The position numbers were made by a program, and so were the translations under genes. The notes under the pieces are model-generated. The model saw only the letters and a list, made by a program, of their open reading frames with translations. It had not been told where the DNA came from and did not search any database. Of a DNA stretch of 64,000 nucleotides, positions 1,585 to 64,000 are shown in pieces; position 1 is the stretch's first letter; each line of letters opens with the position of its first letter. Source of the DNA: a virus (taxonomy: Duplodnaviria > Caudoviricetes); IMG/VR virus record IMGVR_UViG_3300020048_000009, positions 128,001 through 192,000 of that record; one strand, given 5' to 3'.

Positions 1585-2418
1585 ATGATAAATTTTAAAA
1601 ACGTAATAATAGAAGCACAACAGCGTGATGCTCTTCCGACCTATAATGAATTATTTAAATATTTAAGTAAATTCTATCCTGAAAATCTAAAAGAAGGTTT
1701 AAAGGATATTAGATATGGAATGTATAATATAAAAAATCCTAATAAAGAAATTCAAAAAATTTTATTATGCACAACAGTTACTGAAGAAGTTAAAACTAAA
1801 GCAATAAATGAAAATTTTGATTTAACCATAACACATCACCCATTTCTAAAAGATGTCCCTGGAATAATTTTCCATCTAACAATGGATGAATCTACTCATG
1901 GGCACAATGTTTATTTCTTAAATCGAATGGGACTACAAAATAAACATATTGGAGATTTAATAGTTTCTGGTGATTTATATAAAGACATGGAAATTTCAGA
2001 ATTTATAGATTATCTAGAAAAACATGGATTTAAAGTAAACGGTATATTACATAAGAATAAAAATTATCCTGATGAAGATGATTTAATTAAATCCGTTTTA
2101 TATTGTGCAGGTGGCGGCGGAATATTGTTAAATAAGCATATCTTAGAGATGCATCATTTAGCAGGTAATCCCGAATGGGATATGCGTAATATTGAAAAAG
2201 ATGTGTATGTTACAGGCGAGCTTAGTAGTAAATGGGATCTAGATAATAATAAATTTAAATATATTATTGAGCTATCACATACAACTTCTGAGAAACCTTT
2301 ATTTAAGCTTATTCAGAACAAAATTAAGAATAAATGGCCTAGACTAACTGTTGAAATAGCAGATAATAAAATCGATTATGTTGGATGGGAATCTTTAAAT
2401 AAAAAGACTAGAATTTAA
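1585..2418 (+). CDS. NIF3-like dinuclear metal-centre protein
   Basis: ILLCTTVT, ITHHPF, FHLTMD, YVTGE, IELSHTTSE; start moved from 1570 to 1585 because 1572-1582 is the late-promoter-like motif. Confidence 0.7.
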   Translation: MINFKNVIIEAQQRDALPTYNELFKYLSKFYPENLKEGLKDIRYGMYNIKNPNKEIQKILLCTTVTEEVKTKAINENFDLTITHHPFLKDVPGIIFHLTMDESTHGHNVYFLNRMGLQNKHIGDLIVSGDLYKDMEISEFIDYLEKHGFKVNGILHKNKNYPDEDDLIKSVLYCAGGGGILLNKHILEMHHLAGNPEWDMRNIEKDVYVTGELSSKWDLDNNKFKYIIELSHTTSEKPLFKLIQNKIKNKWPRLTVEIADNKIDYVGWESLNKKTRI

Positions 2419-3863
2419 GTCTTTTTATAATGTGACATGATTGAAGTATAAATATTTTTATATCTATCATGCTTTAAATATTTTTGACAGAAATAACCAA
2501 TATTTAGTCCAATATTATCTTTAAGTTCCCAATCAATATTTGGATATTTTAATAATGATTCAATCATTTTCCTATTAAGATCGACACCACCATGGTAATA
2601 GGGTGAAGCTTCAATAATAGCCAACATTAATGGTGTATTTTTGTCTATTCTATCTTGAATATTAATGTCAATACCTGGATATGTTGATAAAAATTCAGTA
2701 AGTTCATAATTATTATATGTTACGGCTGTCATTAATATATTGGTATTATTAAACGGCTTATTAACATCAAATTTATAGTTACTAGCCAAATATTTAAATA
2801 ATTCTACAGAATCATGATCATATGTCTTTCTTGATAAGTATAGTAATGCATTTTCACCATTACTATCAGTAAGATAAACGTCTAGATCTGGGAAATTTTT
2901 AAGTATATCGGTCGCTAAATCAGAATAACCCCAATGTATTCTATTTAAAAATAAAGGAACAGTAAAACCCCCATCAAAGTCTAGAGGAGTATTGATATTC
3001 ATATTATACCTAGAGAGTACTTCTTTTATTTGATTGACATCCTCACAATTTATTAAATTAGCTTTTATAACTCTATGTTTATCTTTATCATCAAGCATCT
3101 TAATATTATCATACCATTTTAAATCTTTTATTATATTTTTTAATTCATTAGATAATTTATATTTTTTAATACCCGGTGAATCTTCTTCATTAATATCTAG
3201 AATATTCCATATATCTTTAGCTTGATCGGGATAAACTGTTATTGCAAATTTTGTATCTATGTCTGTATTAGTTATATGTTCAGATAATGTAAATACATCA
3301 TCATCAGTTTGAGGATTCCAGTCATCTATTTTTTGCACAGTATCATCAACTTTTTTCATATCGGGGCGATTTGTTTTATGAATAATAAAATAAAATCTTA
3401 GATTTTCATCAATATAATAACTTTCCCAAAATTCTGGATTATCTGTACTTATACACCAATGGGTAGAATATCCCTTATAAAATCTGCCTAATTCTTTTGC
3501 AGCTTCATATGAATCTACCTGCCAAAGTTCATAATTTTCAGTTTCTTTTATTTTTTTGCCTTTACCATCTTTAGTTTTCTGCGCTTTATACTTTTGTTCA
3601 GTTTTCTTTTCTGTATTAGATCTATAATTTTCTATAAAAGATTTAAACTCTTCAAACGGCTTCTTAAACCAGAAATTTATATCATTATTAGGTGCTTGTA
3701 TTTTAACTCTAATGTTAGTTAAGAAATTATCTAAAATAGGTTTAAATTCTTCTTCAGGTATAGTCGACCAAGCCTTTTTAGCTGCTAATAATATTTTATT
3801 AGAAATTTCTTCTAATATTAATTGGTTGTATGCTTCACAGATGGGGATATTGTAATATTTCAT
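2415..3863 (-). CDS. Ankyrin-repeat protein with N-terminal 'WCIS' domain; candidate internal head protein
   Basis: C-terminal ankyrin-like units (GENALLY, NILMTAV, NTPLMLAI); N-terminal ~150 aa paralogous to 41785..43182. Confidence 0.75.
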   Translation of the reverse strand: MKYYNIPICEAYNQLILEEISNKILLAAKKAWSTIPEEEFKPILDNFLTNIRVKIQAPNNDINFWFKKPFEEFKSFIENYRSNTEKKTEQKYKAQKTKDGKGKKIKETENYELWQVDSYEAAKELGRFYKGYSTHWCISTDNPEFWESYYIDENLRFYFIIHKTNRPDMKKVDDTVQKIDDWNPQTDDDVFTLSEHITNTDIDTKFAITVYPDQAKDIWNILDINEEDSPGIKKYKLSNELKNIIKDLKWYDNIKMLDDKDKHRVIKANLINCEDVNQIKEVLSRYNMNINTPLDFDGGFTVPLFLNRIHWGYSDLATDILKNFPDLDVYLTDSNGENALLYLSRKTYDHDSVELFKYLASNYKFDVNKPFNNTNILMTAVTYNNYELTEFLSTYPGIDINIQDRIDKNTPLMLAIIEASPYYHGGVDLNRKMIESLLKYPNIDWELKDNIGLNIGYFCQKYLKHDRYKNIYTSIMSHYKKT

Positions 3864-3952
3864 ATTTTTTATTTATTAAAGATATAAGAATTTTTGTTCA
3901 AATAAATATTACAAAAAATTAATAAATAAAATAAACAAAATAGACGAAAACT

Positions 3953-4501
3953 ATGAGTAAAAATAATTTTAAAAACTTTTTTAAGAAACAGAATATTAAC
4001 AATGAAATACTTGGTTATTTAGATCGTTCAGAGCGTGAAAAATTAATAAAGTTTCTTAATATAAATGGTTTAACCCCTAATTATAAAGTAACAGTAAAGA
4101 AACAACCCGTTCCATTATTATCGTATGCGGTTGTTGTAGGATGTGGTACGATTGTAAAAGATTTGCTTAATTTAGGAGCAGACGTTAACGCAAATAGTGA
4201 CCAAGCATTATCTATGGCAATTGAGACTGCCCAAGGTGTTATAGCTAGAATATTATTAAAATCCGGTGCAAATCCTAATGCAGATAATGGTGCATTATTA
4301 AAAACAGCAGCACTGAAAAATAATTTAGGAATGCTTGAAGAATTATATAACTATGGCGCTAAATTTACTGAAAAGTTAGGCAAAGAACTCTTTGCGATAG
4401 CATATAGAAATAATAATTATGATATGCAAAGGTTTATATCAGAACGAATTATTAAACCTGAAAAAATTGAAAAAATAATTAAAACGGAGTTTAATAAATA
4501 A
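3953..4501 (+). CDS. Ankyrin-repeat protein
   Basis: LLNLGADVNANSDQAL, LLKSGANPNADNGALL, LYNYGAKF. Confidence 0.85.
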   Translation: MSKNNFKNFFKKQNINNEILGYLDRSEREKLIKFLNINGLTPNYKVTVKKQPVPLLSYAVVVGCGTIVKDLLNLGADVNANSDQALSMAIETAQGVIARILLKSGANPNADNGALLKTAALKNNLGMLEELYNYGAKFTEKLGKELFAIAYRNNNYDMQRFISERIIKPEKIEKIIKTEFNK

Positions 4502-4505
4502 AAAT

Positions 4506-4730
4506 ATGAATGTTTTAGAACGAATAGTTACCAAATTGTTCAGTGGAAGATGGATATTAACGCTAATTGCGGGAATTTCATTACTTATTATAACATGTGT
4601 TTCTTGTTATGCCGCGATAATTGGTTTACCACCTATTGCAGATCCTGGAGCGTTATTATCAGTTATAGTAATGGTATTTATGAGTTATTTCCAAAAAAAT
4701 ACTGATAACAATAATAGAGAAATACATTAA
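4506..4730 (+). CDS. Small two-TM membrane protein (possible holin-like)
   Basis: Two hydrophobic stretches and a polar C-terminus; holin role is only a guess. Confidence 0.45.
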   Translation: MNVLERIVTKLFSGRWILTLIAGISLLIITCVSCYAAIIGLPPIADPGALLSVIVMVFMSYFQKNTDNNNREIH

Positions 4731-5431
4731 CCTTCTTTATCCAATTCCTCAGAAGTCAATGCACCATTTGAAATTAATATTTTTCTAATATTAATAAGTT
4801 GATCATCGTTTATTCTATCTAAAGCAGTTAAACCATATTGTTCATCTTTAACGTTTAAATCCGCACCTTTTTCTATAAGCATCATAATTAATCGTTCTTT
4901 TTCAAATGCTTGTAATATATTAGAATCTAATATAATCATTAATGCGTTATACCCAGTATAATGTTCTTGTATATTAACATTTATATTATTTTGTACTAAT
5001 AATAAAGATATAATATCAAAATTTCCCAAATTACATGCCAACATTAACGGTGAAACATTATTTTCATCTAAAGAATAAAGATCAACGCCTTTATATATAA
5101 GAACTTTTACAACTTCCATCTGATTATAAGTGATGGCAGCAGCCAGTGGTGTTTTTTGCGTTGTTTTTTCAACCATGTTGATGTTTGCTCCATCTTTAAG
5201 TAAAGTATCAAGGCTATTTAAGTCGCCGTTAGAACACGCATTAATAAGGTTTAATGATGAATCTTTATCAGGCATTATATTAGCTTCAATGATTTTTACT
5301 TTTTTCTTAGGTTTTATTTTTATATTAGTATCTGCTTTTGATTCTAATATTACCTTAGTCGGTTTCATTATATTTTTTATAACTTGTAAATATGCATCAG
5401 CTATTATATTATTGGTTTCAAGATTAAACAT
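4727..5431 (-). CDS. Ankyrin-repeat protein
   Basis: KTPLAAA, VSPLMLAC, YNALMI, GADLNVKD..GLTALD; start moved to the ATG at 5431. Confidence 0.9.
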   Translation of the reverse strand: MFNLETNNIIADAYLQVIKNIMKPTKVILESKADTNIKIKPKKKVKIIEANIMPDKDSSLNLINACSNGDLNSLDTLLKDGANINMVEKTTQKTPLAAAITYNQMEVVKVLIYKGVDLYSLDENNVSPLMLACNLGNFDIISLLLVQNNINVNIQEHYTGYNALMIILDSNILQAFEKERLIMMLIEKGADLNVKDEQYGLTALDRINDDQLINIRKILISNGALTSEELDKEG

Positions 5432-5514
5432 TTTATTTTTCCTATATATTTTATTTATCACATTTTTTAAAATACTTGGTATATTTTGTAATATACTTTT
5501 TATATAATCATTTT

Positions 5515-5955: not shown

Positions 5956-5977
5956 TATATTATATAAAAGGTAAAAT

Positions 5978-6163: not shown

Positions 6164-6165
6164 AT

Positions 6166-7236: not shown

Positions 7237-7250
7237 AAGGAAAGAATAAT

Positions 7251-7499: not shown

Positions 7500-7500
7500 A

Positions 7501-7713: not shown

Positions 7714-7725
7714 GAAAGATATAAA

Positions 7726-41410: not shown

Positions 41411-41478
41411 CTCTTAAAAAAAATAAAAAATAATTCAATAAATAATATAAAATCAAAATTTTATATTATTTTTTATTT

Positions 41479-41781
41479 ATGAAACTATTAAAACTCTTTC
41501 CATTAGTCTTAGAAGCAGTAAAAGACTCCGATTATACGCAATTAACACTGGATTTAAAAAAACCAGAACCGAAATATAATAAATATGCCGGATATAAGGG
41601 TGGGATAGTTAAAATTGAAAAAATTGAAAATTCTGATAAATGGCGGGTTGTTGAACGAAAAGCCGGAATGAAACCATATGCATTGGAACGTTTGGGTTTT
41701 CATGATAAAAATACAATGCAGGTCATATTGGATAAATGGGCCAAAAAGAATGGAAGAAACCCCCTTCCTATTAAAGGATAA
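41479..41781 (+). CDS. Hypothetical protein, candidate internal head protein
   Basis: CAATAAATAA upstream; leader MKLLKLFPLVLE. Confidence 0.55.
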   Translation: MKLLKLFPLVLEAVKDSDYTQLTLDLKKPEPKYNKYAGYKGGIVKIEKIENSDKWRVVERKAGMKPYALERLGFHDKNTMQVILDKWAKKNGRNPLPIKG

Positions 41782-41784
41782 ATA

Positions 41785-43182: not shown

Positions 43183-43196
43183 GAAAGAAAATATAA

Positions 43197-44240
43197 ATGA
43201 AAGATTATAATGATATAGTATATAAAGCATATCAATTAGTACTTGAAAGTACTAGAGGTTCTGCTGATATAAATATTCCTAGACCAAATAGACTTAAAAC
43301 ACCACCTAATAATTATGGCAGTTCAGGGCAAAATGCTCGTGAGTATGGTATGTATATTCAAGACCAAGCTGAAGAAGTCTATCAAGATAAATATGGTAGA
43401 GAAAAAGGTACCAAAGCATGGGAAGGTATCATTAGTGTTGGAAATGCAATGTTTAAAGCATGTGATCAAATTTTAGGTGAAAAACGTACAATGACTGATA
43501 TAGTTGGTGATTTTATGCGAGATCAAGTTGATAATATGATTACCGATGAAATATGGCGCAAAGCTACTGATTCTTACATTTGTTTATGGTGTGCCTGGAT
43601 TTTATTACAAAAAACTAAAGGAACCAATTATACACAAGACTTTTTATCAGAATGCATCCCAACTTTTAAAAGTGTACTATCATATCTACCAGGTTTCTTA
43701 GAACCATTTTTACTTAAAGCAGAAATAGATATTAATAATTTTGCATTAAGTAAAAAAGTTCAAACTGCTGTTGATTTAAAAGAAAAAGTTAGACAGCAAC
43801 TAGCAGCATTAGACGCAGTAGAACAGCAACAAAAACAAACAGCAGCGACTAATACCAAAACAATGATAGATACGTTTGTTAATGCATTACCAAATGCTGC
43901 AGCTATTAAAGCAAATACAAAATATAATAACTATATATACGATCGGATTAGTATATTAATAGATTCTAAGGCATTAACTAAATTAATTAAATATGAATTT
44001 AATGGTCAAAAAGATAATGATAGAATAGTTAATATGCTTAGAAAATCATTACGAGACGAATATAAAAATGAAGCAGATGTTATGCCATGGATGATTGATA
44101 TATCAAAAGCTAGAAATTTTGCTGATAATATGAATGCCGCTATTACTGATGAAGGTAAAAGAAATGCTCGTAAAAAAGCCGCAGAAGATTTAGGTGTAAA
44201 ATATATTGCCGATCGTTTTACAAATGCGGTACCCGAATAA
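43197..44240 (+). CDS. Hypothetical protein, candidate internal head protein
   Basis: Leader ending KAYQLVLE. Confidence 0.6.
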   Translation: MKDYNDIVYKAYQLVLESTRGSADINIPRPNRLKTPPNNYGSSGQNAREYGMYIQDQAEEVYQDKYGREKGTKAWEGIISVGNAMFKACDQILGEKRTMTDIVGDFMRDQVDNMITDEIWRKATDSYICLWCAWILLQKTKGTNYTQDFLSECIPTFKSVLSYLPGFLEPFLLKAEIDINNFALSKKVQTAVDLKEKVRQQLAALDAVEQQQKQTAATNTKTMIDTFVNALPNAAAIKANTKYNNYIYDRISILIDSKALTKLIKYEFNGQKDNDRIVNMLRKSLRDEYKNEADVMPWMIDISKARNFADNMNAAITDEGKRNARKKAAEDLGVKYIADRFTNAVPE

Positions 44241-44295
44241 AAGAAAGTATTTTATTTACGTTATTAATAAGCATTTATACGTATAATTTGATTAT

Positions 44296-45936
44296 ATGTC
44301 AAATGAACAACTGTCCAAATTAGATCAATGTTTAGCTTATTTTAATAGTAACAATCTAACACCCAGAATTAACCAAAGGGAATGTTTAGATTTTTTATTA
44401 AAAAATGATGATAAAGAATTTTTTATATTAAACCTTCCGACAGGAACGGGCAAAAGCTTTATACCATTATCACTTGGTGAAATTCATAAAAAAATATTAA
44501 TCGTTACTTCTACAAACCAATTAATAGAACAATATCTTAAATTGGATAAAAATGTTGTAGAAATAAAAGGCGCAGGTAACTATAAATGCGCAAAAGAAGA
44601 CTTCCTTACATGTGCTGAAGGTCCATGTAAAAATAACATGGCATTACGTCAAAGCTGTATTATTAATTCATGCTGTCCACATATAAACCAATTAGACGCA
44701 TTTAAAAATGCTAAAAAAGGTTTAACAAATTATTCTTTTGTTTTAAGTAGTATTTTATATGGTATATTTTCTGAAGAAAATAGAGAGTTTAAATATGATT
44801 GGGTTATATTTGATGAAGGTCATAATATAGAACAACATATGATTGACTTCGCAACCATAAAAATCGATTATAATTATCTAATAGAAAATCAGATAATTCC
44901 CTATGACGATTATATCATTAAAAACAAACAAGAAATTACATGGGTAGATATTATTAATTCTTGTAAATTTATTCAATCTAAAATAGCATATAGATTAGAA
45001 GTAATAAACTTTAGATTAGATGAATTGAAAAAATCTAAAAAAACGCTTAAAATCAAAAAGGAAATTAAAAAGTCTTTAGAAGAAAAATCTTTCTTGGATA
45101 AGATATTAACACCCTTCTTATTATTTCTATCACATTCAAATGAAAATAATTGGATATATGAACCCAATTCTTCTGATAATACTTTTAAATTGACACCTAT
45201 TAATGCTGGATTTATCTTTAATTCGTATTTAAAAACTATTGGTAAGAAGTTTATCTTTATGTCAGCCACAATCGGCGACCAGGACGTGTTTAAACGCATC
45301 TTGGAGCTAGAGCCAAGTAAAACTACTTACTTCGAATGCGACTCACCATTCCCCGCTAAAGCAAGCCCTGTGGTCGTTCTACCGAAACTCAATTTATCAT
45401 ATACTGCTATTGATAATTCTCTAGAAAAATGTTTACAATATGTTGAAGCTATTTCATCTAAGCATAAAGAGGGTGGAATTATCCATACTGCTAATTATAA
45501 GATTGCAACATATATCTATAATAATTGCAATCCGACATTAAAAAATAGATTAGTATGTAAAGAAAAGTACAAAAACGTAAATAACTCTAGATTAGTAGAA
45601 ATACATGAAGAAAATATTAGAGGCGGTCTTAATTCTATCCTATTATCACCGTCTATGATTGAAGGATTGGATCTTATAGATGATTTAAGTAGATGGCAGA
45701 TTATAATTAAGTTACCTTTTGCTAGTTTGGGTGATGGAAGAGTCAATTATCTAGCCAATAAATTTAAAGAATGGTATGTTGATGATGTTGTTAAAAAAAT
45801 CATTCAGGCTTGTGGCAGAAGTACTAGAACTGAAAATGACTGGTCTATAACATATATTTTAGATAAAACCGCTCCAGCTATATTTGAACAAATTAAATTG
45901 CCTATATGGTTTAAAAATAGACTTATTTTTAAATAG
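44296..45936 (+). CDS. DinG/XPD-family SF2 helicase
   Basis: LPTGTGKS, Cys cluster, IFDEGHN, MSAT, EGLD, QACGRSTR; ends in TAG. Confidence 0.9.
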   Translation: MSNEQLSKLDQCLAYFNSNNLTPRINQRECLDFLLKNDDKEFFILNLPTGTGKSFIPLSLGEIHKKILIVTSTNQLIEQYLKLDKNVVEIKGAGNYKCAKEDFLTCAEGPCKNNMALRQSCIINSCCPHINQLDAFKNAKKGLTNYSFVLSSILYGIFSEENREFKYDWVIFDEGHNIEQHMIDFATIKIDYNYLIENQIIPYDDYIIKNKQEITWVDIINSCKFIQSKIAYRLEVINFRLDELKKSKKTLKIKKEIKKSLEEKSFLDKILTPFLLFLSHSNENNWIYEPNSSDNTFKLTPINAGFIFNSYLKTIGKKFIFMSATIGDQDVFKRILELEPSKTTYFECDSPFPAKASPVVVLPKLNLSYTAIDNSLEKCLQYVEAISSKHKEGGIIHTANYKIATYIYNNCNPTLKNRLVCKEKYKNVNNSRLVEIHEENIRGGLNSILLSPSMIEGLDLIDDLSRWQIIIKLPFASLGDGRVNYLANKFKEWYVDDVVKKIIQACGRSTRTENDWSITYILDKTAPAIFEQIKLPIWFKNRLIFK

Positions 45937-45997
45937 GTCTATTCATATATAAATTTATTTTTAATAAATAAAATAAATAACTTTTATTAAAAATAAT

Positions 45998-46336
45998 ATG
46001 AAAACAAAAGAATCCAAAGTTCAATATATAAAGAAAATAATAGATTTACAACCAGAACATCCTGGTAGTATTAGTTCACAAGAACACAAAACTAAAGCCG
46101 GAAAGTTGAAAACATATTATTTATGGCAAACTTCTGTTAACGGTGAAAAAGTGTCTGTTCGTTTATCAAAACCTAATGATATTTCAGAAATTAGGGATTA
46201 TATGGATAAACTAAAACATAAAGAAAAAGCCCATAGTCGTAGTGTCTTAAAAATGGTTGATACCTTTAAAGGTGCAATTTCAGAATTAGGTGCTGGAAAA
46301 CGTGGAAATATCCAAAATTTAAAAGGTAAGAAATAA
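45998..46336 (+). CDS. Basic hypothetical protein (late-motif preceded)
   Basis: TAATAAATAAAA at 45962-45973. Confidence 0.55.
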   Translation: MKTKESKVQYIKKIIDLQPEHPGSISSQEHKTKAGKLKTYYLWQTSVNGEKVSVRLSKPNDISEIRDYMDKLKHKEKAHSRSVLKMVDTFKGAISELGAGKRGNIQNLKGKK

Positions 46337-46337
46337 C

Positions 46338-46952
46338 ATGAAAATAGATAAAAAACAGTGGCAGCAAAAGATATATGAAAGTTTCTTATTGAATGAATTA
46401 GCAGCAAACGAAAATCAAGCAGTTAGAGACCTAAGAAAAGAACTAAAGCTTGATGATAAGTGGGAATCGTCATATGAACTAAATAACAACAATAATAACA
46501 TTATTGTTAAATTTACAAGTAATGATAAAACCTTGGAATTTAAATTTATTCCGTCTGCTGGAAAAGACTGTGGCTATCAAATAAAGATTAATGATGAAAT
46601 TATAAAAACTTCAATAGAAACAGATCCTATAAAAAATATCTGTAATTTTATTTATGAGGATAGAGTTTTTAGAAACGTATTAATTAAAGCTAAAGAGAAA
46701 CTACTTGCTCGTGAAAAAGAACAAGAATTAGATGCTCAAAAGGATGTGTCTGCTGATGATAATGTTGATAAGAAATTAGATCAAGCAATTCCGCCGGCTG
46801 AACCCAAGGCTGAACCTTCTGGAGAACCATCGGGAGAACCATCGGGAGAACCAACAGATGAACCCACTGGAGATGAAGAAGCCAATCAGGAAAAAGCTCC
46901 ACCAGAAACAGATGAAGAGAAAAAGAAACGTACAACAAGCGTAAAACTTTAA
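46338..46952 (+). CDS. Hypothetical protein with acidic PSGE-repeat tail, candidate internal head protein
   Basis: Leader YESFLLNE; EPSGEPSGEPSGEPTDEPTGD. Confidence 0.6.
   Translation: MKIDKKQWQQKIYESFLLNELAANENQAVRDLRKELKLDDKWESSYELNNNNNNIIVKFTSNDKTLEFKFIPSAGKDCGYQIKINDEIIKTSIETDPIKNICNFIYEDRVFRNVLIKAKEKLLAREKEQELDAQKDVSADDNVDKKLDQAIPPAEPKAEPSGEPSGEPSGEPTDEPTGDEEANQEKAPPETDEEKKKRTTSVKL
46800..46872 (+). repeat. 12-bp coding tandem repeat (GAACCATCGGGA-like) giving EP(S/T)(G/D) units
   Basis: Read directly from DNA and protein. Confidence 0.75.
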
Positions 46953-47518
46953 TCTTTTAAAATAAACTGTTTAATAGAATCCCGGATTTTATCTGGGATT
47001 TTTCTTTCTATATAATCAATGTTATCAAATTGATAGTTGTCATATTTTTGATTATATCGACTTAAAACAAAAGAAGGATAGATGGTGATAAACATATAAC
47101 AAATATCACTCAAATTAAGCTTTTTATGTTTTATAAAAACGACATTATTATATGATGATTTTTTGAAATTGATTTTAAAAAACTTATCAAATATTTGATT
47201 TATTTTTATTTCGTTATATACAATATCAGGTTCATCTATTGTATATTTAGATGTTAATTCTATATTATCAGTATTCGTATTAGTATAATGGTGCTCGGGA
47301 TAACATGTATCAATAATATAAAATTTATACTCTGAATTATAATGAGATATAATATCTAAAATAATTTTATCTACAGCTTTTAATATATCATTAGCTTTTA
47401 CTTTTTCTGTAAATATGTATTTACCATTTTCATATATGAATGCATTATTCTTTTCGTCAAAATAATTTTTGACGAAAATATTATATATGTCCTGATATGG
47501 TATTAAAATTATCTTCAT
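46949..47518 (-). CDS. Hypothetical protein
   Basis: Abuts the 5'-3' exonuclease gene. Confidence 0.55.
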   Translation of the reverse strand: MKIILIPYQDIYNIFVKNYFDEKNNAFIYENGKYIFTEKVKANDILKAVDKIILDIISHYNSEYKFYIIDTCYPEHHYTNTNTDNIELTSKYTIDEPDIVYNEIKINQIFDKFFKINFKKSSYNNVVFIKHKKLNLSDICYMFITIYPSFVLSRYNQKYDNYQFDNIDYIERKIPDKIRDSIKQFILKD

Positions 47519-48445
47519 TTAAAATGGCATTTCTTCTTCTTTTAATAATTTTTCTGATTCGGTTATTACTAATTGTTGTAAATCAGTAGGGATATTATCA
47601 AAATTAATAATCTTGTTATTAATTACGAATTGTTTTTTAGCAGCAGCATCTGCATTTAGTCTTGCTTTTAATGATTCAGTATCTAATACATATTTCATAG
47701 CAGTTTGATAACCGCATCTAGGAAATACTTGATTGATATTATCACTATCATCACCCATTAGAATTTTAGCAAAAAGATATTGTTTTGCCGATACTGGATT
47801 TTTCTTATATTCTTCTGGTAGAACTTCTACACCTTCTAAATTAAACATTCTAGCATTATAATCATCTCGTAATTGTAGAAAGTCTTGATCGGATGCTATA
47901 ATGATTTTATTTTTTATTTTAGAATTTTTACACATTGAAGCAATAACATCATCACCTTCAGCATCTGCAACTCGAAGTGTATGGATTTTAAAATATTCTT
48001 CTAGATTCAATTTTGGAAAAAGAACATCTTGAGCATAATTGAAAGCATTTTTAACTTTAAATTTATGTTTAACAAGTTTACGATGAGCTTTATACTCTTG
48101 ATAATATTGCATTCTCCAGTTTGTTTTTAATGGAGAATCCTGACATAGAAATGTAGTAGTACGAATTGTATCAAATTGATTAAAAATTTTATTCTTTAGA
48201 ATCCAATTAATACTGTCAATACGTTTTAATAAATATTCCGCATATATACGAGTATAATCATCACATGTCGTTAAATCGGGTAAATCATCATATGGTATAT
48301 CTTTATAATTTTCAGAAATTAATATTTTATTCTCTGAGGTTTTAAACCATTCATTATATGCTCCATGTAATGAATAATATATTAAATAAGAACAATCAAT
48401 TAAAACTAAACATTCTCTATCAAAACAATCTTTTTCATCTAACAT
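47519..48445 (-). CDS. 5'-3' exonuclease / T4 RNase H-like
   Basis: LIDCSY, YKAHR, AEGDDVIA, ASDQDFLQL, LMGDDSDNI. Confidence 0.9.
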   Translation of the reverse strand: MLDEKDCFDRECLVLIDCSYLIYYSLHGAYNEWFKTSENKILISENYKDIPYDDLPDLTTCDDYTRIYAEYLLKRIDSINWILKNKIFNQFDTIRTTTFLCQDSPLKTNWRMQYYQEYKAHRKLVKHKFKVKNAFNYAQDVLFPKLNLEEYFKIHTLRVADAEGDDVIASMCKNSKIKNKIIIASDQDFLQLRDDYNARMFNLEGVEVLPEEYKKNPVSAKQYLFAKILMGDDSDNINQVFPRCGYQTAMKYVLDTESLKARLNADAAAKKQFVINNKIINFDNIPTDLQQLVITESEKLLKEEEMPF

Positions 48446-48477
48446 ATCAAAATATCCTTTTAATAAATTATACGAAA

Positions 48478-48505
48478 AAGCTGTTAATAATTAAATTAAC
48501 AGCTT
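48478..48505. terminator. Intrinsic terminator-like hairpin
   Basis: AAGCTGTTAAT-AATTAA-ATTAACAGCTT with flanking A run. Confidence 0.6.
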
Positions 48506-48544
48506 AAGTTTTATACATGTTTAATTACTTTATTGGTATAAATT

Positions 48545-48766
48545 CTATGTTATATTAGGTTTAAATTCACCACAATAATCTAATTCAGGCATTGCTATAA
48601 TGGGATATACAGTTTTTGCAAATGTTGTTTTATATCCTGTTAATTCATTGAAACTATTACCTGATGGTATTGTTATAGGTGGGAATCGTCTACAAAATTT
48701 ATTTCTATTATCAAAAAAATCACAATTTATACATTTAGCGGTCATATTATTCCTTATTTTTATCAT
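48545..48766 (-). CDS. Cys-rich hypothetical protein
   Basis: CINC..CRRFPP..YP..CGEFK; ends in TAG. Confidence 0.6.
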   Translation of the reverse strand: MIKIRNNMTAKCINCDFFDNRNKFCRRFPPITIPSGNSFNELTGYKTTFAKTVYPIIAMPELDYCGEFKPNIT

Positions 48767-49106
48767 CTATGGATTGTAAATATCCAGTGATATTTAATTT
48801 ACTAAAATTATTTTGAACATCATTTATATCAATACAATAGCCAGTTTTTAATAAGAAATCTATTAAATTTTGATCTGCGCCTTTTAATGTAACTTTATTT
48901 TTTAGTTTATCAAATTCTATAATATTAACATTATATTTTTCGGCGTCGGCTCTTAAATTAATCTCGTTTAAACTTTTTTCATCTTTATCTAGAAGTGAAT
49001 AATTTAATATTATCTCGTTTTGTACTTGTGCTTCATCTTCCGCTACAATATTTTTATTAGATAATTCTTTAACAGATTCATTATATATTTTTTTAAATTT
49101 TATCAT
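48747..49106 (-). CDS. Hypothetical protein, candidate internal head protein
   Basis: Leader MIKFKKIYNE. Confidence 0.55.
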   Translation of the reverse strand: MIKFKKIYNESVKELSNKNIVAEDEAQVQNEIILNYSLLDKDEKSLNEINLRADAEKYNVNIIEFDKLKNKVTLKGADQNLIDFLLKTGYCIDINDVQNNFSKLNITGYLQSIDDKNKE

Positions 49107-49109
49107 ACT

Positions 49110-50294
49110 TTAACCTATTGCTATATTTGAAGAACATTTAGGATTCTTATTATTTTCTAATCTATAAACTAATTTTATTTTTAATTTACTATTGCTAAAT
49201 GCTTTTATTTCTTTTATTTTTGGTTCTTGTAATTCTGGTTTAGACCAATCAGGTTCTTGTATACATAATAGAGTATAATATAATGCTTTGGCTATTTTTG
49301 GCGTTAGGGTTTGAACATCTGCAAGGGTTGGGTCATATCCAAATTTAGAGAAATCAGGCGCGCCTAAATCTATACTAATTCCCAATTCTTCAAAATGGAT
49401 AATTCGTTTAGCTTTAGCATTTTTATCAACAGTTGGATCTTTTTTACCTATAACATATCCCTTATTAATTTTATTAAATATAGCAATAGTTTCTGGTGGA
49501 ATATTTGTTGGATTTTTTATTAAAGAATCAATTACAGCTTTAGTATTATCATTATATGAAAGCTCTTTATATATTTTATTAAACTCATCCCATCTTAATG
49601 TAGAATTAAAAGCTTTTATTACATTAGAACCAAATGCTTCTATGTCTACTTTATATTTTTTTAATATATTTATAAAACCTTTAATAAATTCAGAATTATT
49701 AAAATTTTTGCTTAATAAAACAGCAAATGATAAAATATCAATATTAGCTTTTGGTATTAGTTGTGATAACAATACTGTAACATCACCAGTATACCCTGTT
49801 ATAAATTCTTCTATTAACTTACCAGTATCATTACCCTTTATAAAACCATCTATTGCTGGAAAAAATATTGGAACGTTATTATATCCCTTACCATTTGATT
49901 GAGCGGTATAATCAACTGTTAATTTTGTCTTAGGTTCAATGTCTTTAATTAATGAAAGTAATTCATCTATTTTTTTATTAAAAGCAGCCTTATAAATTTT
50001 CTTAGGGAAATTTATATCTTTAATTCTTGCTGCAACATCTTTAACATTTTCAATGCCTTTGCCAATAGCAGTTGCAGCTTTTTGTAAACCTGGGTGTAAT
50101 TCGTTATATGCTTGATTTTTTACAGCAGTCCAAGCGGCTTTTCCTGTTTTAGCAGCAGCACGTTTAAACATGTCTTTAAATGATGAAGCATTTTTAACAT
50201 CTTTAGCCTTATTAATAGCTGCATCAGTAGCAACAGGCTCTTGTTCTACTATAAAACTCTCATTATAAAATTGTTTAAAATTATTGATTTTCAT
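49110..50294 (-). CDS. Hypothetical protein, candidate internal head protein
   Basis: Late motif upstream; leader MKINNFKQFYNESFIVE. Confidence 0.65.
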   Translation of the reverse strand: MKINNFKQFYNESFIVEQEPVATDAAINKAKDVKNASSFKDMFKRAAAKTGKAAWTAVKNQAYNELHPGLQKAATAIGKGIENVKDVAARIKDINFPKKIYKAAFNKKIDELLSLIKDIEPKTKLTVDYTAQSNGKGYNNVPIFFPAIDGFIKGNDTGKLIEEFITGYTGDVTVLLSQLIPKANIDILSFAVLLSKNFNNSEFIKGFINILKKYKVDIEAFGSNVIKAFNSTLRWDEFNKIYKELSYNDNTKAVIDSLIKNPTNIPPETIAIFNKINKGYVIGKKDPTVDKNAKAKRIIHFEELGISIDLGAPDFSKFGYDPTLADVQTLTPKIAKALYYTLLCIQEPDWSKPELQEPKIKEIKAFSNSKLKIKLVYRLENNKNPKCSSNIAIG

Positions 50295-51796: not shown

Positions 51797-52423
51797 TTAT
51801 CTATTTTCGTCATCAGATGTTTCTGAATTATCAGGAATAGTATCTAAATCTGTAGGAAGGTCGCCATCAGGATTTCCTTCAGGATCTCCCTCTGGGGTGC
51901 CTTCTGCATCAGGGTCTGCATCAGGATTTAATTCATTTTCTAATGATTCGGCATCTTCACCCATTGCAGATAAAATCTTCTGTGTCATAGATTTAATAAT
52001 ATCTAATGCCGTAACATTTTCATCATTATAATCTAATTCTTCAGGATTTTCTTCAGGATTTTCTGCATCAGGTTCACCCATAGGATCGCCTTCTTCTGGT
52101 GTATCAGCAGTTGGTTCTATATCTAAATCTGAAATAGTACCAGCATCACTATCTTCATCTTCACCTGCTTCTACAACACCAGTACATCCTGCTTTCTTAC
52201 ATAGAGTATCTTCTGCAGCAGAATCACCGCCCATAGCTTTTTCTAATAAACCCATGTCTTCAGTTTTAGTCGCATCCAAACCTATTTTTTTTACATAATC
52301 CTGTAGCTTAGGATCTTTATTCTTTAAATAAGCATCAATAGGTTTAACAACATTATCCACTAAATTGCCGTCTTCTTTTACCATTTTCTTCATTGCCATA
52401 ATAGTTTTCTCCAATAATTTCAA
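51797..52423 (-). CDS. Highly acidic low-complexity protein (possible prohead-core/internal protein)
   Basis: D/E/P-rich repeats; late motif upstream; start codon uncertain. Confidence 0.6.
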   Translation of the reverse strand: MKLLEKTIMAMKKMVKEDGNLVDNVVKPIDAYLKNKDPKLQDYVKKIGLDATKTEDMGLLEKAMGGDSAAEDTLCKKAGCTGVVEAGEDEDSDAGTISDLDIEPTADTPEEGDPMGEPDAENPEENPEELDYNDENVTALDIIKSMTQKILSAMGEDAESLENELNPDADPDAEGTPEGDPEGNPDGDLPTDLDTIPDNSETSDDENR

Positions 52424-53568: not shown

Positions 53569-54228
53569 TTAAGTATTCATTTTGGATAAAATAAAAACAC
53601 AATTACCTTTTCCATCAGCATATGTCTGCCAATTATCTTTTAATCCTGATACATGTTGAATTTTTTTATCAGTATTCCAACCATAAGACTTAAATGTATT
53701 TTCCCACCATATTTCATCTTCTGCTATAAGATGTGATATTTCAATATGATATTCTTTTATTCTATATTTTCCATTATCACCCATTGGAATAACACACATT
53801 ATATTAGAACAAATTTTTGATATATTGTTTAACATTTTTTCTAATTGTTCTAATGTTAAATGTTCTAAAACGTCTTTAATTATAACATGTGTATATTTAT
53901 TAGTATTTGCAGCCCATGATAAATCTTTAGAACAATTCCAACATCCACTTGGAGCAAAAGATAAGGCATACTCACTTATATCACATCCATCTGCTTTAAT
54001 TTCTAATAATCTTAATGCTTTTACAATAAAACCTTTGGCACATCCAATATCTAATATATAACTATGTTCATTTAATTGCAATGTATCAATATATGCTAGT
54101 GCCTCTTTAATTGATCGAATTGGCATCCATTTATAATTAGATAACCAACCCTTTCCTGATTCTCTTCCACGTTCAAAATAATCAGCATCATAAAACTCAC
54201 CTGTAAACTCTTTAGACGAACTCGACAT
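53569..54228 (-). CDS. Class I SAM-dependent methyltransferase
   Basis: LDIGCAKG, GCDISEYA, DVLEH. Confidence 0.85.
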   Translation of the reverse strand: MSSSSKEFTGEFYDADYFERGRESGKGWLSNYKWMPIRSIKEALAYIDTLQLNEHSYILDIGCAKGFIVKALRLLEIKADGCDISEYALSFAPSGCWNCSKDLSWAANTNKYTHVIIKDVLEHLTLEQLEKMLNNISKICSNIMCVIPMGDNGKYRIKEYHIEISHLIAEDEIWWENTFKSYGWNTDKKIQHVSGLKDNWQTYADGKGNCVFILSKMNT

Positions 54229-55144
54229 CTTTAACTCCTTTTAATAAATTATGTATAAAATCATTATGTTCTTTACCACAATTACAAAAACTACAATTAT
54301 ATTTTAAATCATGTGGTGGATTATTTAAAAGCCATTGTTCTAAATCTTTAATTTTACATAAATTAAATTTTGATGGTATATATCCTTCATATTCAGGTGT
54401 TAATTGAATAGACGGGCACGGTAGAAAATTACCGTTCCAATCTATTGCCGCACGTATCCATGCCATATAACAACCCAATGGTTGACCAGTTGCTTTTTTT
54501 GAAAAAAATATAAAATCTAAATATTTAGAAACATAAGCGTTTATATCCGACTCTCTTTCTAATGTTGACGGGCGTTGCGCCGCAATTCTTACAATTATAT
54601 TTTTTTCTTTTGCCCATATATATAAATTATCAATTATATCTAATTTTTCAACATTTCCTATAATATAAGAAGTACTAATATTTATATTCTCTGGAATATT
54701 GCTTAACTTTAAATTATTTACGTGTGAAAGTGATTGTAAACTAATTCTTATCCATGCTAATTTAGATAAACTATTTTTTGAAATATTACATAAAGATAAC
54801 CCGTTAGTTATTAATGATATTTTTAATTTTTTATTACTTGCATAATCAATAGCTTCTTCGATGTGTGGCCATAATAATGGTTCGCCACCACCAGAAAATT
54901 CTATAGCCTTACACCCATATTTACTTAATATATTAATTGCTAATTTAAAATCATCTAATGATAATTCCTTTGTTTTATCCTTAATATTTTTACAACAACA
55001 ATAGCTACAATTACATTGGCATTTAATAGTTGGCCATATTGACACATGAATTGGTGCCACTGTTTTACTGTCACATATATTTTGTATGTGCTGTGTATGA
55101 TATATTAATTTATGTAATCCGACGGAATATCTATTAAAATCCAT
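54212..55144 (-). CDS. Radical SAM protein
   Basis: CQCNCSYC, FSGGGEPL, ITNG, C-terminal Cys. Confidence 0.85.
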   Translation of the reverse strand: MDFNRYSVGLHKLIYHTQHIQNICDSKTVAPIHVSIWPTIKCQCNCSYCCCKNIKDKTKELSLDDFKLAINILSKYGCKAIEFSGGGEPLLWPHIEEAIDYASNKKLKISLITNGLSLCNISKNSLSKLAWIRISLQSLSHVNNLKLSNIPENINISTSYIIGNVEKLDIIDNLYIWAKEKNIIVRIAAQRPSTLERESDINAYVSKYLDFIFFSKKATGQPLGCYMAWIRAAIDWNGNFLPCPSIQLTPEYEGYIPSKFNLCKIKDLEQWLLNNPPHDLKYNCSFCNCGKEHNDFIHNLLKGVKDVEFV

Positions 55145-58022: not shown

Positions 58023-58023
58023 A

Positions 58024-60352: not shown

Positions 60353-60499
60353 ATATACTATTCACTTTTTTTAAATTTATATTAAAATTATACAGAATGT
60401 TTTATTTTTTATATAAAAACATACTTTTTTATTTATCACTTATTTATAAAAATCGTTTATTTTAATAAATAAAATAAAAATAATTAATAGGAAAAATCT

Positions 60500-61918
60500 A
60501 TGAGTATTGAGAATTATCTAATTTTTGAAGCATATAAAACAATGGGCAAAAATACAGCAGTTAAAATCAAAGAAACAGCACCAAAACCAATTAAAATCAA
60601 AGAAGATGAAAATGATCCTGAAGAATTGGACATGGATAATGAATTTGATACTGATCCTGCAGGCGTTGAACTTGATGCCGATGCAATGACTCCTGATGAA
60701 ATGGAAAAAGGTACAAAGGGTACAAATAGATATGGTTCTATTTATGATGCTCCAAAAGGCCAACGTGCAGCATATGCCAATGCAATCCTAAAGAAATATA
60801 ATAAATGGTCAGGAGCAGATTTACCAGTAGTTAATACTAATAAAGTAGCACACGATCCAACCAATTATTCTAATTTTACTGGAAAAGTCGATTGTAGAGG
60901 TGGTACAGGAAATGTTAAAAATGCCACTTTCACCATAACAAAGGGTGGAAGAATATTTTTTGACCAGGGTGTATGGTTAGATGGTGAATTTAGATTGGGC
61001 ACATTTACTGGTGTATTTAAAAATGGCTTATTTAAAAATGCTCTATTCGGCGGCGGCATATTTGATGGCGGAACAATGGATGGCGGCGTATTTTATGCCG
61101 GTGTATTTAAAAAAGGTGTATGGGTTAAAGGTGATGGCACAAATACAAAAGTAAACTTTATATTGAGTGTTACTGATACAGAAGGAAAAACACATAGCAA
61201 CCTAGAATTAGCAGAACTTTATAATGCAACATATCCAGCATTGAGAAATAAAAATATGATGAAACAGATAAACACTGCTGGTTTTTATTATAGAGACGAA
61301 GCAGGATGGTTAAATGAAGAGGGTGATGCTGCATCTATTGATGAATTATTCAAAATAAGAGGTATTATTACTACTATAATGAAAAAAATCGAACGTCAGG
61401 CTGAAAGATCCTACGCCAATGCCCCAAGTCCTGAAATGATTGGTAAACCTGTACAAAGAGTTACTAAGAATCCTACAGGTGGCGTTGATGTAACAGGACA
61501 AGACGTAGATGATGAAGATGCCGGTAATATCGCGGATATTAAAGCTGGTGCAACATCTTCAGATATGGGTAAATATTCTGCTGGTGGTGGTTCTGATATT
61601 GATGCGGGTGATGATTTTACTCAAGCATTAGATCAAGATGAAAAAGCAGCAGAAATTGAACGTAAAAAAGAAGATATGCGTGCTAAAAATAAAGAATTAG
61701 GATTAGATCCTGATCAAATTGATGATGAATTGATTGATAATGAACAAGCTATCAATAGAGCATTAACTGATACTGGATTAACTGATGAAGAACCTGATTT
61801 GACAACAGACGATCCTGAAAAAATTAGAAAAGAAAATATTAAAATATTAGCTCGTAAAGGTAAATCAGCTGCTGATAAAGCTGCGGCTGAAAAATGGAGA
61901 AGAGAAAACGGCATCTAA
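60500..61918 (+). CDS. Acidic protein with central Gly-rich pentapeptide repeats; candidate internal head protein
   Basis: Late motif at 60463-60474; F.GG.F.GG repeats; acidic termini. Confidence 0.6.
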   Translation: MSIENYLIFEAYKTMGKNTAVKIKETAPKPIKIKEDENDPEELDMDNEFDTDPAGVELDADAMTPDEMEKGTKGTNRYGSIYDAPKGQRAAYANAILKKYNKWSGADLPVVNTNKVAHDPTNYSNFTGKVDCRGGTGNVKNATFTITKGGRIFFDQGVWLDGEFRLGTFTGVFKNGLFKNALFGGGIFDGGTMDGGVFYAGVFKKGVWVKGDGTNTKVNFILSVTDTEGKTHSNLELAELYNATYPALRNKNMMKQINTAGFYYRDEAGWLNEEGDAASIDELFKIRGIITTIMKKIERQAERSYANAPSPEMIGKPVQRVTKNPTGGVDVTGQDVDDEDAGNIADIKAGATSSDMGKYSAGGGSDIDAGDDFTQALDQDEKAAEIERKKEDMRAKNKELGLDPDQIDDELIDNEQAINRALTDTGLTDEEPDLTTDDPEKIRKENIKILARKGKSAADKAAAEKWRRENGI

Positions 61919-61940
61919 TATTAAAGGTAAATATTAAAAT

Positions 61941-61972
61941 AAAAAAGAGTTTCAGCAATGGAACTCTTTTTT
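61941..61972. terminator. Intrinsic terminator
   Basis: AAAAAAGAGTTTC-AGCAAT-GGAACTCTTTTTT. Confidence 0.75.
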
Positions 61973-62006
61973 ATTTGTATAATTAATGTATTAAAGGAAA
62001 AATAAT

Positions 62007-62990
62007 ATGTTTGATGATGATATTAAAGTACCAGAGCAATGGGTAGATAAATATAAACCTAATAATTTTGATGATTTAGTTCTTACTCCTGAAAATAGAG
62101 AGTTTTTTAAAAACATTATAAAATCTAAAAATTTAACACATTTAACATTATATGGAAATGCTGGTATTGGTAAAACTTTAACTGCAACACTTCTAGCAAA
62201 AGAATTAGATGCTATTACATTATTTGTTAAATGCGGTGTTAATGGTAATGTTGACTATGTTAGAGAGCAAATTACAGAATTTTGCCAAAGTAAAACCATT
62301 GACGGCGCACTAAAAATAATTATTTTAGATGAATTTGATTCAGCATCTGGTGCTATGTCCATGGCTAAAAAAGATGATGCAAGCGGCAAAGCAACAAATA
62401 ATGCAATGATGGCTTTAAGAAGTGTTATATCAGAACATGAAGATGATTGTCGTTTTATAATTACCTGTAATTATGTAAATGTGATATTAGATGCTATTCT
62501 ATCGAGATGTCCACGTATGAATTTATCTTTTACACATAAAGATGTTTTACTACGTATTGTACAAATATTAAAAGCTGAAAATATTACATATAACAATGAC
62601 ACATTAAAAATGTTTCTAAGTAAAGTTATATTGAAAAACTTTCCAGATATTCGTAGTATGATTCATATATTACAGAGATGTTGTTCTTCTGGAACACTAG
62701 TAGTTAATTCAGAAATTGAAGAAAATACTACCGATATAGAAGAATTGGCTAAAACTGTATGGAAACAAGTTCAAAATAAAACACGCCCACAAGATATTAG
62801 AAAATACGTATTAGATAATAAAAATAAATTTAATGATGAATATAGTAAATTTGCAGGAATTATATTAAAACAAAATATAGATGTTATATCAAATGAACAG
62901 GCAAAAAATATAATCCAAAAAATTTATAACATGGAACATGTTATAGATGCAGAAATACAATTTTATGGAATGCTTTTAGAACTATCTTAA
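62007..62990 (+). CDS. Sliding-clamp loader AAA+ subunit (T4 gp44/RFC-like)
   Basis: WVDKYKP, GNAGIGKT, ILDEFD, FIITCN, ILSRC, FPDIR. Confidence 0.92.
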   Translation: MFDDDIKVPEQWVDKYKPNNFDDLVLTPENREFFKNIIKSKNLTHLTLYGNAGIGKTLTATLLAKELDAITLFVKCGVNGNVDYVREQITEFCQSKTIDGALKIIILDEFDSASGAMSMAKKDDASGKATNNAMMALRSVISEHEDDCRFIITCNYVNVILDAILSRCPRMNLSFTHKDVLLRIVQILKAENITYNNDTLKMFLSKVILKNFPDIRSMIHILQRCCSSGTLVVNSEIEENTTDIEELAKTVWKQVQNKTRPQDIRKYVLDNKNKFNDEYSKFAGIILKQNIDVISNEQAKNIIQKIYNMEHVIDAEIQFYGMLLELS

Positions 62991-63727
62991 AGTGAGTGTT
63001 CTATTTCTTTTGCGCGTCTTATTATGTACATATCACATTGATGTACTTTTCTAAAACGTGGCGCGCAAAATTTTCTTAATAAAGCTTTAAAATTACTTTT
63101 ATCGTCTGCATTCTGTACTAAATATTTAGCATTTATTAAAGCGGTTGCCACATCATTTTTAAGAGCTTCACCATTATTAACATTGTTATAAAATTTAGAA
63201 GACATAAATAAATTAAATAGTTGTACATATTCGGTTTTTGTTAATTTATTTAAACTAATTAAAGACATTGTAATACGAACAGGAATAACTTCTAATTCTT
63301 TAATATCATCTTCTACTGGCACTTGTTCTTTTTTAACATTTGGTGTTTTGCTATAGTTTCTATTTGCTACTTTAGCCTGATATTTAATCGTTGCTTCTTT
63401 TAATCTAAATTTATCAGATTTATGTACTCTGGCATTATCGATAAATGCTTTTAATTGTTCTAATGTAACATATTTACTACCAATTAATTCCATTGCTAGT
63501 CTATCTCTTTTCTCATCACCGTCGTCATCGTTAGCATAATACTTAGAAGTAATAAAATCTGCAAATAGACCATTGTATATATCTTGGTCAATACGATTAT
63601 TAACAATTAAATTACATAATTCATCAATTGGAAGGTTTTTAAATCTTTCAATAACTTCGGGACTAACATCCTCATTTAAAAATTTTCTATAAGCTTCTAA
63701 TAATAAGATTTTTACTGATTTCGCCAT
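62987..63727 (-). CDS. Hypothetical protein, candidate internal head protein
   Basis: Late motif upstream; leader LLLEAYRKFLNE. Confidence 0.6.
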   Translation of the reverse strand: MAKSVKILLLEAYRKFLNEDVSPEVIERFKNLPIDELCNLIVNNRIDQDIYNGLFADFITSKYYANDDDGDEKRDRLAMELIGSKYVTLEQLKAFIDNARVHKSDKFRLKEATIKYQAKVANRNYSKTPNVKKEQVPVEDDIKELEVIPVRITMSLISLNKLTKTEYVQLFNLFMSSKFYNNVNNGEALKNDVATALINAKYLVQNADDKSNFKALLRKFCAPRFRKVHQCDMYIIRRAKEIEHSL

Positions 63728-63795
63728 AATACATATCCTTTATTTTATTTATTACTAAAACGTTTTTTTAATAAATAAAATAAAAACATTTTATT

Positions 63796-64000
63796 ATGAA
63801 CATTACAAAATTATATCAATTAATTGTAGAGAATACCGGTGAAATAAATAGATTAACTGCCAAATTTGGACCAGAATCTGCAGAGTTAAATAAATTCTAT
63901 TTTAAAACTCTTAGAGGTAAATATTCTGGTGGAACATTTATTAAAGATACTAATGTAATATTACAACGTTTTAATAATTTACAAGAATGGGAAGCTTTTT
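63796..64000 (+). CDS. Partial ORF running off the window (MNITKLYQLIVENTG...)
   Basis: Late motif at 63769-63780; open to window end. Confidence 0.6.
   Translation, partial: MNITKLYQLIVENTGEINRLTAKFGPESAELNKFYFKTLRGKYSGGTFIKDTNVILQRFNNLQEWEAF

Follow-up and report, generated by a model that had tools for sequence, protein, structure and literature searches.

Phage T4 uses a tag of ten residues to load a few anti-defence proteins into its head, and capsid-targeting sequences (CTS) of this sort are already in use for loading foreign proteins into T4 capsids. From the internal proteins IPI, IPII and IPIII and from Alt, the prohead protease gp21 cuts the CTS off (Mullaney and Black 1996, reviewed in PMC9026906, PMC3012670, PMC5694885), and the T4 propeptides are 10–19 residues long (PMC9026906). 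In IPIII the first 10 residues suffice for packaging; residues 4 and 7 serve targeting and residues 8 and 10 processing, and an Asp at position 10 blocks cleavage but not targeting (PMC9026906). The T-even phages' internal proteins are diverse, have only the CTS in common and differ between phages, a turnover that has been read as an arms race with host defences (PMC3012670, PMC9026906). In the giant phages phiKZ, 201phi2-1 and SPN3US, a gp21-related protease cleaves the propeptides of head and ejection proteins behind the Glu of (A/S/G)-x-E (PMC5694885, PMC7411985, PMC10052503). Here we analyse short N-terminal leaders borne by late proteins in a stretch of 64,000 nucleotides (the window), which covers bases 128001–192000 of the linear viral contig IMGVR_UViG_3300020048_000009 of IMG/VR (211,678 bp, about 28% G+C). 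Our results show that several leader types are shared by otherwise diverse proteins, that they are restricted to N-termini, that their genes follow late-type promoters, and that the bodies behind them turn over between relatives. We consider it fairly probable, by analogy with T4, that the leaders are capsid-targeting propeptides.

The contig comes from an uncultured phage with a genome of about 250 kb, and is 84% complete according to CheckV. Its TerL shares about 33% identity with the TerL proteins of T4-like phages, cyanophages among them, and the contig carries T4-type genes for a gp13-like neck protein, a tail-tube protein, a gp3-like protein, UvsY, a UvsW-type helicase, gp46/47-like proteins and a family B DNA polymerase. 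Because of the TerL identity and the T4-type neck, tube and replisome genes, the phage classifies on these similarities as a distant, jumbo-sized relative of T4. It also encodes GroEL-like and DnaJ-like proteins. A simple codon-usage caller gave 309 genes, numbered g001–g309, of which g184–g289 lie in the window; the background is an AT-rich proteome, rich in Ile, Leu and Glu.

A sequence-only reading of the window had proposed that about 14 unrelated proteins carry a T4 CTS-like leader ending in (I/L/V)-x-E. All 14 peptide strings were found in place and on the proper strand. The bare ending is not above chance: 41% of the N-terminal 29-mers contain it, as against 37% of the internal 29-mers (1.12-fold, p = 0.06), and taken alone it is uninformative in a proteome so rich in Ile, Leu and Glu. 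Longer motifs (h, hydrophobic) define four classes of leader. Class A, the AY class, has the form h-x-x-A-Y-x-x-h-h(-x-E) and was found on 13 proteins, with the Ala-Tyr at residues 11–16; in seven of them the Glu follows directly, as in ICEAYNQLILE, LLEAYRKFLNE and ITDAYLQVISE. Class B, [KR][FY]xx[LI]xx[KR]LLxE, is present on 5–8 proteins, all encoded outside the window. Class C, NFK[NQ]h, opens a NIF3-family protein, a small ankyrin protein and a 394-aa protein, with a looser FKKIY on the 119-aa neighbour of the latter (3–4 proteins in all), and class D, [YF]xL[ILV][LV]E, ends at residue 12 or 17 of four proteins. These motifs are almost restricted to the first 25 residues: h-x-x-AY is enriched 3.4-fold at N-termini over internal positions, and the class C and class D patterns occur three and four times, respectively, within the first 25 residues and not once in the other 53,355 residues of the proteome. 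In total there are about 32 candidates in the contig, 15 of them in the window; one window member (15702+, IIKNAYKRIF) and about 17 in the rest of the contig had escaped the sequence-only reading. Most of the 32 have a first h-x-E that ends at residue 10–21.

Two further tests were independent of patterns derived from these data. A pattern taken from the T4 CTS, [YFW]xx[FILVM][ILV]xE, matched 13 of 309 N-termini and 15 of 1565 internal windows (4.4-fold, p = 1e-5). In a pattern-free comparison of pairs of BLAST-unrelated proteins, 14 pairs of N-terminal 25-mers reached an ungapped BLOSUM62 score of at least 40, as against 1 and 0 pairs in the internal controls (residues 46–70 and 71–95), and the top-scoring N-terminal pairs were largely leader candidates. 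The sharing of N-termini between proteins is real.

The proteins behind the leaders are partly related and partly not. Five of the 14 first proposed as unrelated are ankyrin proteins, and two of these, which start at 3863 (−) and 41785 (+), are close paralogues that match over 115 residues with 70% identity; 'unrelated' thus overstates the case. When proteins were compared by BLAST from residue 36 onwards, g003, g006, g013, g070, g187, g188, g190 and g262 formed one family, g051, g052 and g289 were linked, and so were several class B proteins. A conservative count gives at least 12 body types without BLAST similarity, the exceptions being the ankyrin family (eight genes) and the KRF family (5–8 genes). 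Class A leaders sit on mutually dissimilar bodies, namely orphans of 347, 246, 472, 146 and 144 aa besides the ankyrins, and class C leaders likewise on the NIF3 protein, an ankyrin protein and the 394-aa protein. All eight ankyrin proteins of the contig have a candidate leader and a late-type promoter; seven exceeded the Ank_2 cut-off in a six-frame search, and the eighth (544 aa) scored 33.2 bits with hmmscan. The NIF3 body matches Pfam DUF34_NIF3 (PF01784) at 84.9 bits against a cut-off of 23.4, and g004, a YgjP-like metallopeptidase, is a further leader candidate. For the non-ankyrin cargo, searches of PHROGs, Pfam and the ESM Atlas returned no function other than these two, and most candidate bodies are orphans without a Pfam or PHROG family.

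The T4 late promoter reads TATAAATA. In the contig a similar motif, ATAAATAAA (in its fuller form roughly TAATAAATAAAATAAA), lies within 70 nucleotides (nt) upstream of 39 gene calls, which include the gene that opens the tail-fibre operon as well as those for gp3-like, gp13-like and neck-like proteins. Upstream of the terminase operon and of one fibre gene there is a variant, AATAAATAATAT. From the types of gene downstream and from the likeness to TATAAATA, we infer a late-promoter role for ATAAATAAA; a gp55 homologue was not identified in the contig. The statement that nearly all of the 14 genes follow the late motif proved right for every one of them: ten do so directly (NIF3 when its start is placed at 1585), two lie in operons behind the motif, and two belong to the operon headed by the gene at 41479 (+). 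The leaders are also commoner in late genes than in the rest, as that reading had anticipated. Within the first 27 residues, h-h-x-E is found in 22 of 50 late-unit genes (44%) and in 34 of 259 others (13%; odds ratio 5.2, p = 2e-6), and h-x-x-AY-x-x-h in 11 of 50 and 2 of 259. The tagged genes are spread over at least 12 loci across 200 kb.

The conservation of the leaders is one of peptide. Their codons differ synonymously at many places among paralogues (TAC/TAT, ATA/ATC/ATT, GCA/GCG/GCT), and therefore conservation and selection act at the peptide level. Five orthologues of the 347-aa protein, 72–88% identical overall, retain MK[DE]YN..IC.AY.L[IV][IL]ES, in which neither the Glu nor the Ser after it varies, and the Glu after the hydrophobic pair is kept in most members, also in the diverged [KR][FY]..LL.E paralogues. 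Since no leader has an uncharged run of more than six residues, neither signal peptides nor membrane anchors are at hand. The candidates have a helical hydrophobic moment of 0.52, only slightly above the 0.47 of the comparison set, a difference that is biased by the choice of candidates and carries little weight. An AlphaFold2 model of the 234-aa ankyrin protein places a helix at residues 5–21, a disordered segment at 22–55 and a confident ankyrin body from 56 onwards, which weakly supports a detachable tag, the leader part being of low confidence.

Bodies come and go between relatives. In a relative at 88% identity the ankyrin gene g262 is missing between the genes of the 100-aa and the 347-aa proteins, and in one at 83% the ankyrin gene g003 is missing. 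Between uvsW and the neck-like gene, the phage studied here has an ankyrin gene and the gene of the YgjP-like peptidase. In two more distant relatives (UvsW identity 57% and 51%) this locus (L014:5589–7041; L015:11650–12372) holds two or three other small late genes, which differ from one relative to the other and have in common a leader of related build, TL[DE]I[IV]KEMTxKIKEAT.

The NIF3 gene (1585–2418, +; 277 aa; strong candidate) gives the closest correspondence with T4. With the start at 1585 the protein begins with the 10-residue leader MINFKNVIIE, in register with MKTYQEFIAE, with which both ipII and ipIII start in the T4 record NC_000866, and its F4, V7, I8 and E10 occupy all four positions mapped in IPIII (4, 7, 8 and 10). 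We considered that NIF3 might be an early gene with a chance leader match, as the ATG chosen by the gene caller at 1570 puts the late motif inside the reading frame, and rejected this, because the motif (1573–1581) precedes the ATG at 1585 by 12 nt, the leaderless-type spacing described below. Weak matches to solved NIF3 structures begin 14–22 residues further from the N-terminus than in those chains; the similarity thus starts past the leader, which is therefore an addition to the enzyme.

How, then, might these leaders work? In the model that we favour, the leader forms a short amphipathic helix that contains an aromatic residue and a hydrophobic pair and would dock the late protein, once made, onto the scaffolding core of the assembling prohead, and a gp21-type prohead protease would cut after the Glu that follows the hydrophobic pair, at residues 10–21; in some AY members the cut might fall after a Glu somewhat further downstream. 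The mature protein would remain in the head and would probably enter the cell with the DNA. The cargo would comprise all eight ankyrin proteins, many orphans, two proteins about 1000 aa long, the NIF3 enzyme and the YgjP-like metallopeptidase, and the phage would thus probably ship a large protein kit with its DNA. We regard T4-type capsid targeting, with cleavage after Glu by a gp21-type protease, as somewhat better than an even bet; it is the best reading available and appears compatible with all tests run. As first put forward, the CTS interpretation rested on too loose a criterion and on proteins that are partly related, whereas the N-terminal restriction, the positions of the residues, the late-type promoters and the turnover speak for it. 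Likewise, of the large packaged and ejected proteome that had been proposed, the leaders on ankyrins and NIF3 are there to be seen, packaging is what we infer from them, and ejection would be one step further.

Several points weigh against capsid targeting. Six of the 13 AY members have no Glu at the expected position, and as a bare h-x-E is common by chance, a cleavage site that is 'displaced' is weak evidence. The patterns of three leader classes were derived and tested on the same data. When a 30-column profile of the main leader was run against 1.84 billion representative proteins, it matched only its own lineage (six hits, at residues 1–30), so that conservation across phages is not usable as support; the AY tag either is lineage-specific or is too short to be detected further afield. 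Finally, the 84%-complete contig has no gene for a prohead protease, scaffold, portal or major capsid protein, with no match to Peptidase_S77/gp21 (PF03420), Gp23 (PF07068) or the T4 portal (PF07230). The search with PF03420 also gave no match in control genomes. In T4-related phages gp20–23 are core genes (PMC9026906), and a gp21-type protease is therefore expected in the lineage; the head module presumably lies in the missing 40–60 kb. A walk from UvsW in relatives led to sheath, baseplate and Collar-type fibre genes, a position just past the 5' end of the contig. Searches of IMG/VR for relatives of the contig found none, and a metagenome scan with the truncated gene at its 3' end gave no matches. 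We had considered a conserved late gene of 510 aa beside uvsW (g005, contig 3882–5414, +) as the capsid protein; it has no Pfam or PHROG match, and we rejected it on its likeness to T4 neck proteins, which comes from ESM Atlas clusters (score 0.87) and is a lead only. As to the AY members without an adjacent Glu, they would be permitted by the separability of targeting and processing in T4.

A bolder version of capsid targeting, which we put forward tentatively and think rather less likely than not to be right in full, is that this lineage gives a tenth or more of its genes (at least 30) to capsid cargo by way of several leader classes, including the first head-delivered ankyrin effectors. The AY helix would then serve targeting alone, with cleavage uncoupled from it and displaced in half of the members, and the classes might set copy number or position in the head.

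A different partner is the alternative that survives best. The leader could be a docking tag for some other late component (a site on tail or baseplate, a membrane, or the phage's own GroEL-like or DnaJ-like chaperones), with a Glu that is no protease site. An amphipathic helix and late expression are equally compatible with such a tag, and the six AY members without an adjacent Glu, the two tagged genes that directly follow the tail-tube gene and the lack of a prohead protease match in the contig all sit well with it. Yet it leaves unaccounted why the Glu behind the hydrophobic pair is kept in most members, is invariant in the five orthologues and persists in the [KR][FY]..LL.E paralogues, and why the register equals that of the functionally mapped T4 CTS (PMC9026906); for the membrane in particular, the uncharged runs are too short. 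We judge this explanation unlikely, with some weight nevertheless.

Less probable still, and in our view quite improbable, is that the leaders have no common function and reflect paralogy (the ankyrin and KRF families) together with constraints of composition and translation on the first codons of AT-rich, partly leaderless late messenger RNAs (mRNAs). Eight of the 13 AY proteins do belong to one BLAST family and the 5–8 class B proteins are paralogues, the genome has 28% G+C, several late genes have the motif 12–15 nt from the ATG, and bare h-x-E is not enriched. Against all this, one leader type recurs on dissimilar bodies (the 347-, 246-, 472- and 146-aa orphans and the ankyrins; NIF3, an ankyrin and the 394-aa protein), the conserved A, Y, C, E, Q and L are not favoured by AT-rich codons, the synonymous variation means selection on the peptide, and internal segments of the same proteins lack such sharing. 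Very improbable, lastly, is a recognition sequence for a modifying enzyme such as one of the three radical-SAM proteins of the window (23373–24374, 38076–39146 and 54212–55144, one with a weak SPASM match): the radical-SAM/SPASM-like gene at 38076–39146 lies 2.3 kb upstream of the tagged operon 41479–44240 and a Cys stands three positions ahead of the Ala in several AY leaders, but only one of the at least 12 tagged loci over 200 kb is near such a gene and no systematic linkage was found, other members have Q, T, A, K, F or L in place of the Cys, and the tagged proteins are large and folded, not short precursor peptides.

Besides NIF3, the strong candidates of the window include three proteins with a class A leader: the 482-aa ankyrin-repeat protein at 2415–3863 (−; leader MKYYNIPICEAYNQLILE, late motif 3876–3868), the 465-aa ankyrin g262 at 41785–43182 (+; leader MKYYNIHICEAYNQIILE), and the 246-aa orphan at 62987–63727 (−; leader ...ILLLEAYRKFLNE, Glu 19), whose late motif (63752–63744) stands back to back with that of the next gene. 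Strong as well are the 347-aa orphan at 43197–44240 (+; leader MKDYNDIVYKAYQLVLE), the 234-aa ankyrin protein at 4727–5431 (−), with the AY helix IIADAYLQVI, the nearest h-x-E displaced to residue 30 (VILE) and the late motif at 5458–5450, the 146-aa orphan at 15702–16142 (+), with its own AY helix and a late motif at 15669–15677, and the acidic 472-aa orphan at 60500–61918 (+), in which the helix YLIFEAYKTM is followed by an h-x-E at residue 25 (KIKE; late motif 60465–60473). Three further proteins were graded in the same way. The basic 100-aa protein at 41479–41781 (+) has a 12-residue leader, MKLLKLFPLVLE, and a ATAAATAAT motif at 41438–41446; it is the first gene of the operon 41479–44240 and is conserved in the 88% relative L011. 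The basic 394-aa protein at 49110–50294 (−; leader MKINNFKQFYNESFIVE) lies directly downstream of the tail-tube gene and has late motifs at 50321–50313 and 50307–50299. The 544-aa ankyrin protein g289, of which the window holds only the start (63796–64000, +), has a 12-residue leader, MNITKLYQLIVE, and a late motif at 63771–63779.

Moderate candidates are the 182-aa small ankyrin protein at 3953–4501 (+; NFK class, NNFKNFF...INNE, without h-x-E; late motif 3922–3930), the acidic 204-aa protein at 46338–46952 (+), which has IYESFLLNE at residues 12–20 and is encoded by the second gene of a late unit (motif 45964–45972 before 45998), and the 119-aa protein at 48747–49106 (−), which begins MIKFKKIYNE and whose gene comes after that of the 394-aa protein in one late unit. 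The 158-aa orphan at 16198–16674 (−; late motif 16707–16699) is weak, as it has only AIILE at residues 22–26.

The late motif stands at two spacings from the start codon, either 12–15 nt, or 24–42 nt with an AGGA-type Shine-Dalgarno sequence in between. The short spacing is found at NIF3 and seven other late genes (window 1573–1587, 3863–3876 and 4494–4508; contig g004, g013, g014, g039 and g050), and since 12–15 nt leaves no room for a Shine-Dalgarno sequence, these mRNAs are probably leaderless or nearly so. Late genes are often arranged as divergent pairs with two late motifs back to back in a spacer of 60–90 nt (window 3863–3953, 16142–16198/16674–16707 and 63727–63796; contig g004/g005, g013/g014 and g050/g051), and they give the impression of small late cassettes that have been put into long stretches of early genes on the plus strand.

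Some late proteins elsewhere deserve mention. Three leader-bearing late proteins of 1043, 925 and 544 aa, g051 and g052 (contig 44180–50118) and g289 (window 63796 onwards), have a common domain without an assigned family, and g052 has two leader-like sites in succession, KLLNE and then LIVE. Two small and very acidic late proteins (isoelectric point about 4.1), g071 (contig 63742–64176, −) and g274 (window 51797–52399, −), could possibly be scaffold or core components. In g071, which bears an AY leader, h-x-E sites number 4.2 per 100 residues, as against 1.8 in the proteome, which is reminiscent of those prohead-core proteins of T4 that end up cleaved into peptides. An endolysin-like protein behind a late promoter (g049, contig 43305–43901, +; PHROG endolysin, 1e-18) has YNDIINE at residues 8–14, followed by a hydrophobic stretch that resembles a signal peptide.

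If the capsid-targeting reading is true, environmental relatives of T4 would expand the principle of head loading to dozens of proteins, protein-binding ankyrin modules and enzymes among them, and candidate injected effectors of uncultured phages could be listed from their sequences. The presence of several leader types in one phage would also be a natural experiment on recognition by the scaffold core.

How does this set compare with the described systems? With the giant phages of the phiKZ type it would have in common a large phage whose many internal head proteins are processed after Glu (here a prediction), as well as diverged paralogues with identical N-termini, as in gp53 and gp54 of SPN3US. 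In those phages, however, most propeptides exceed 100 residues in length and P3 is occupied by a small residue (A/S/G), whereas the leaders described here are short, with a hydrophobic P3 like that of T4; moreover, the phage studied here has a T4-type replisome and terminase and is not phiKZ-like. The likeness to the internal proteins of the T-even phages is that the leader alone is conserved and the bodies are diverse, being gained and lost between close relatives. The tagged genes differ in being scattered as single late-promoter cassettes, often in divergent pairs, instead of lying at one or two loci, and the bodies are mostly not small basic proteins.

To the T4 CTS itself the resemblance extends to a short N-terminal propeptide on late proteins, with a predicted cut at residue 10–21 as against 10–19 in T4 (PMC9026906), and to an aromatic residue, a hydrophobic one three positions on and then I/L/V-x-E. 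The class A core Y-x-x-h-h-x-E corresponds to Y4-x-x-F7-I8-x-E10, and YNQLILE, YRKFLNE and YLQVISE fit it; here too the bodies behind the leader are otherwise unrelated and evolve fast, and related phages differ in their cargo loci. The differences lie in number and kind: about 32 candidates against four or five proteins in T4, and at least four leader classes against one. The main class is a longer helix with an invariant Ala-Tyr, about half of its members lacking a directly following Glu, and among the predicted cargo are a family of eight ankyrin proteins, a NIF3 enzyme and proteins about 1000 aa long. The principle is thus already known from the T4 literature, and what distinguishes this phage is how many proteins bear a leader, the existence of several leader classes, the AY helix and an ankyrin family of which every member is tagged.

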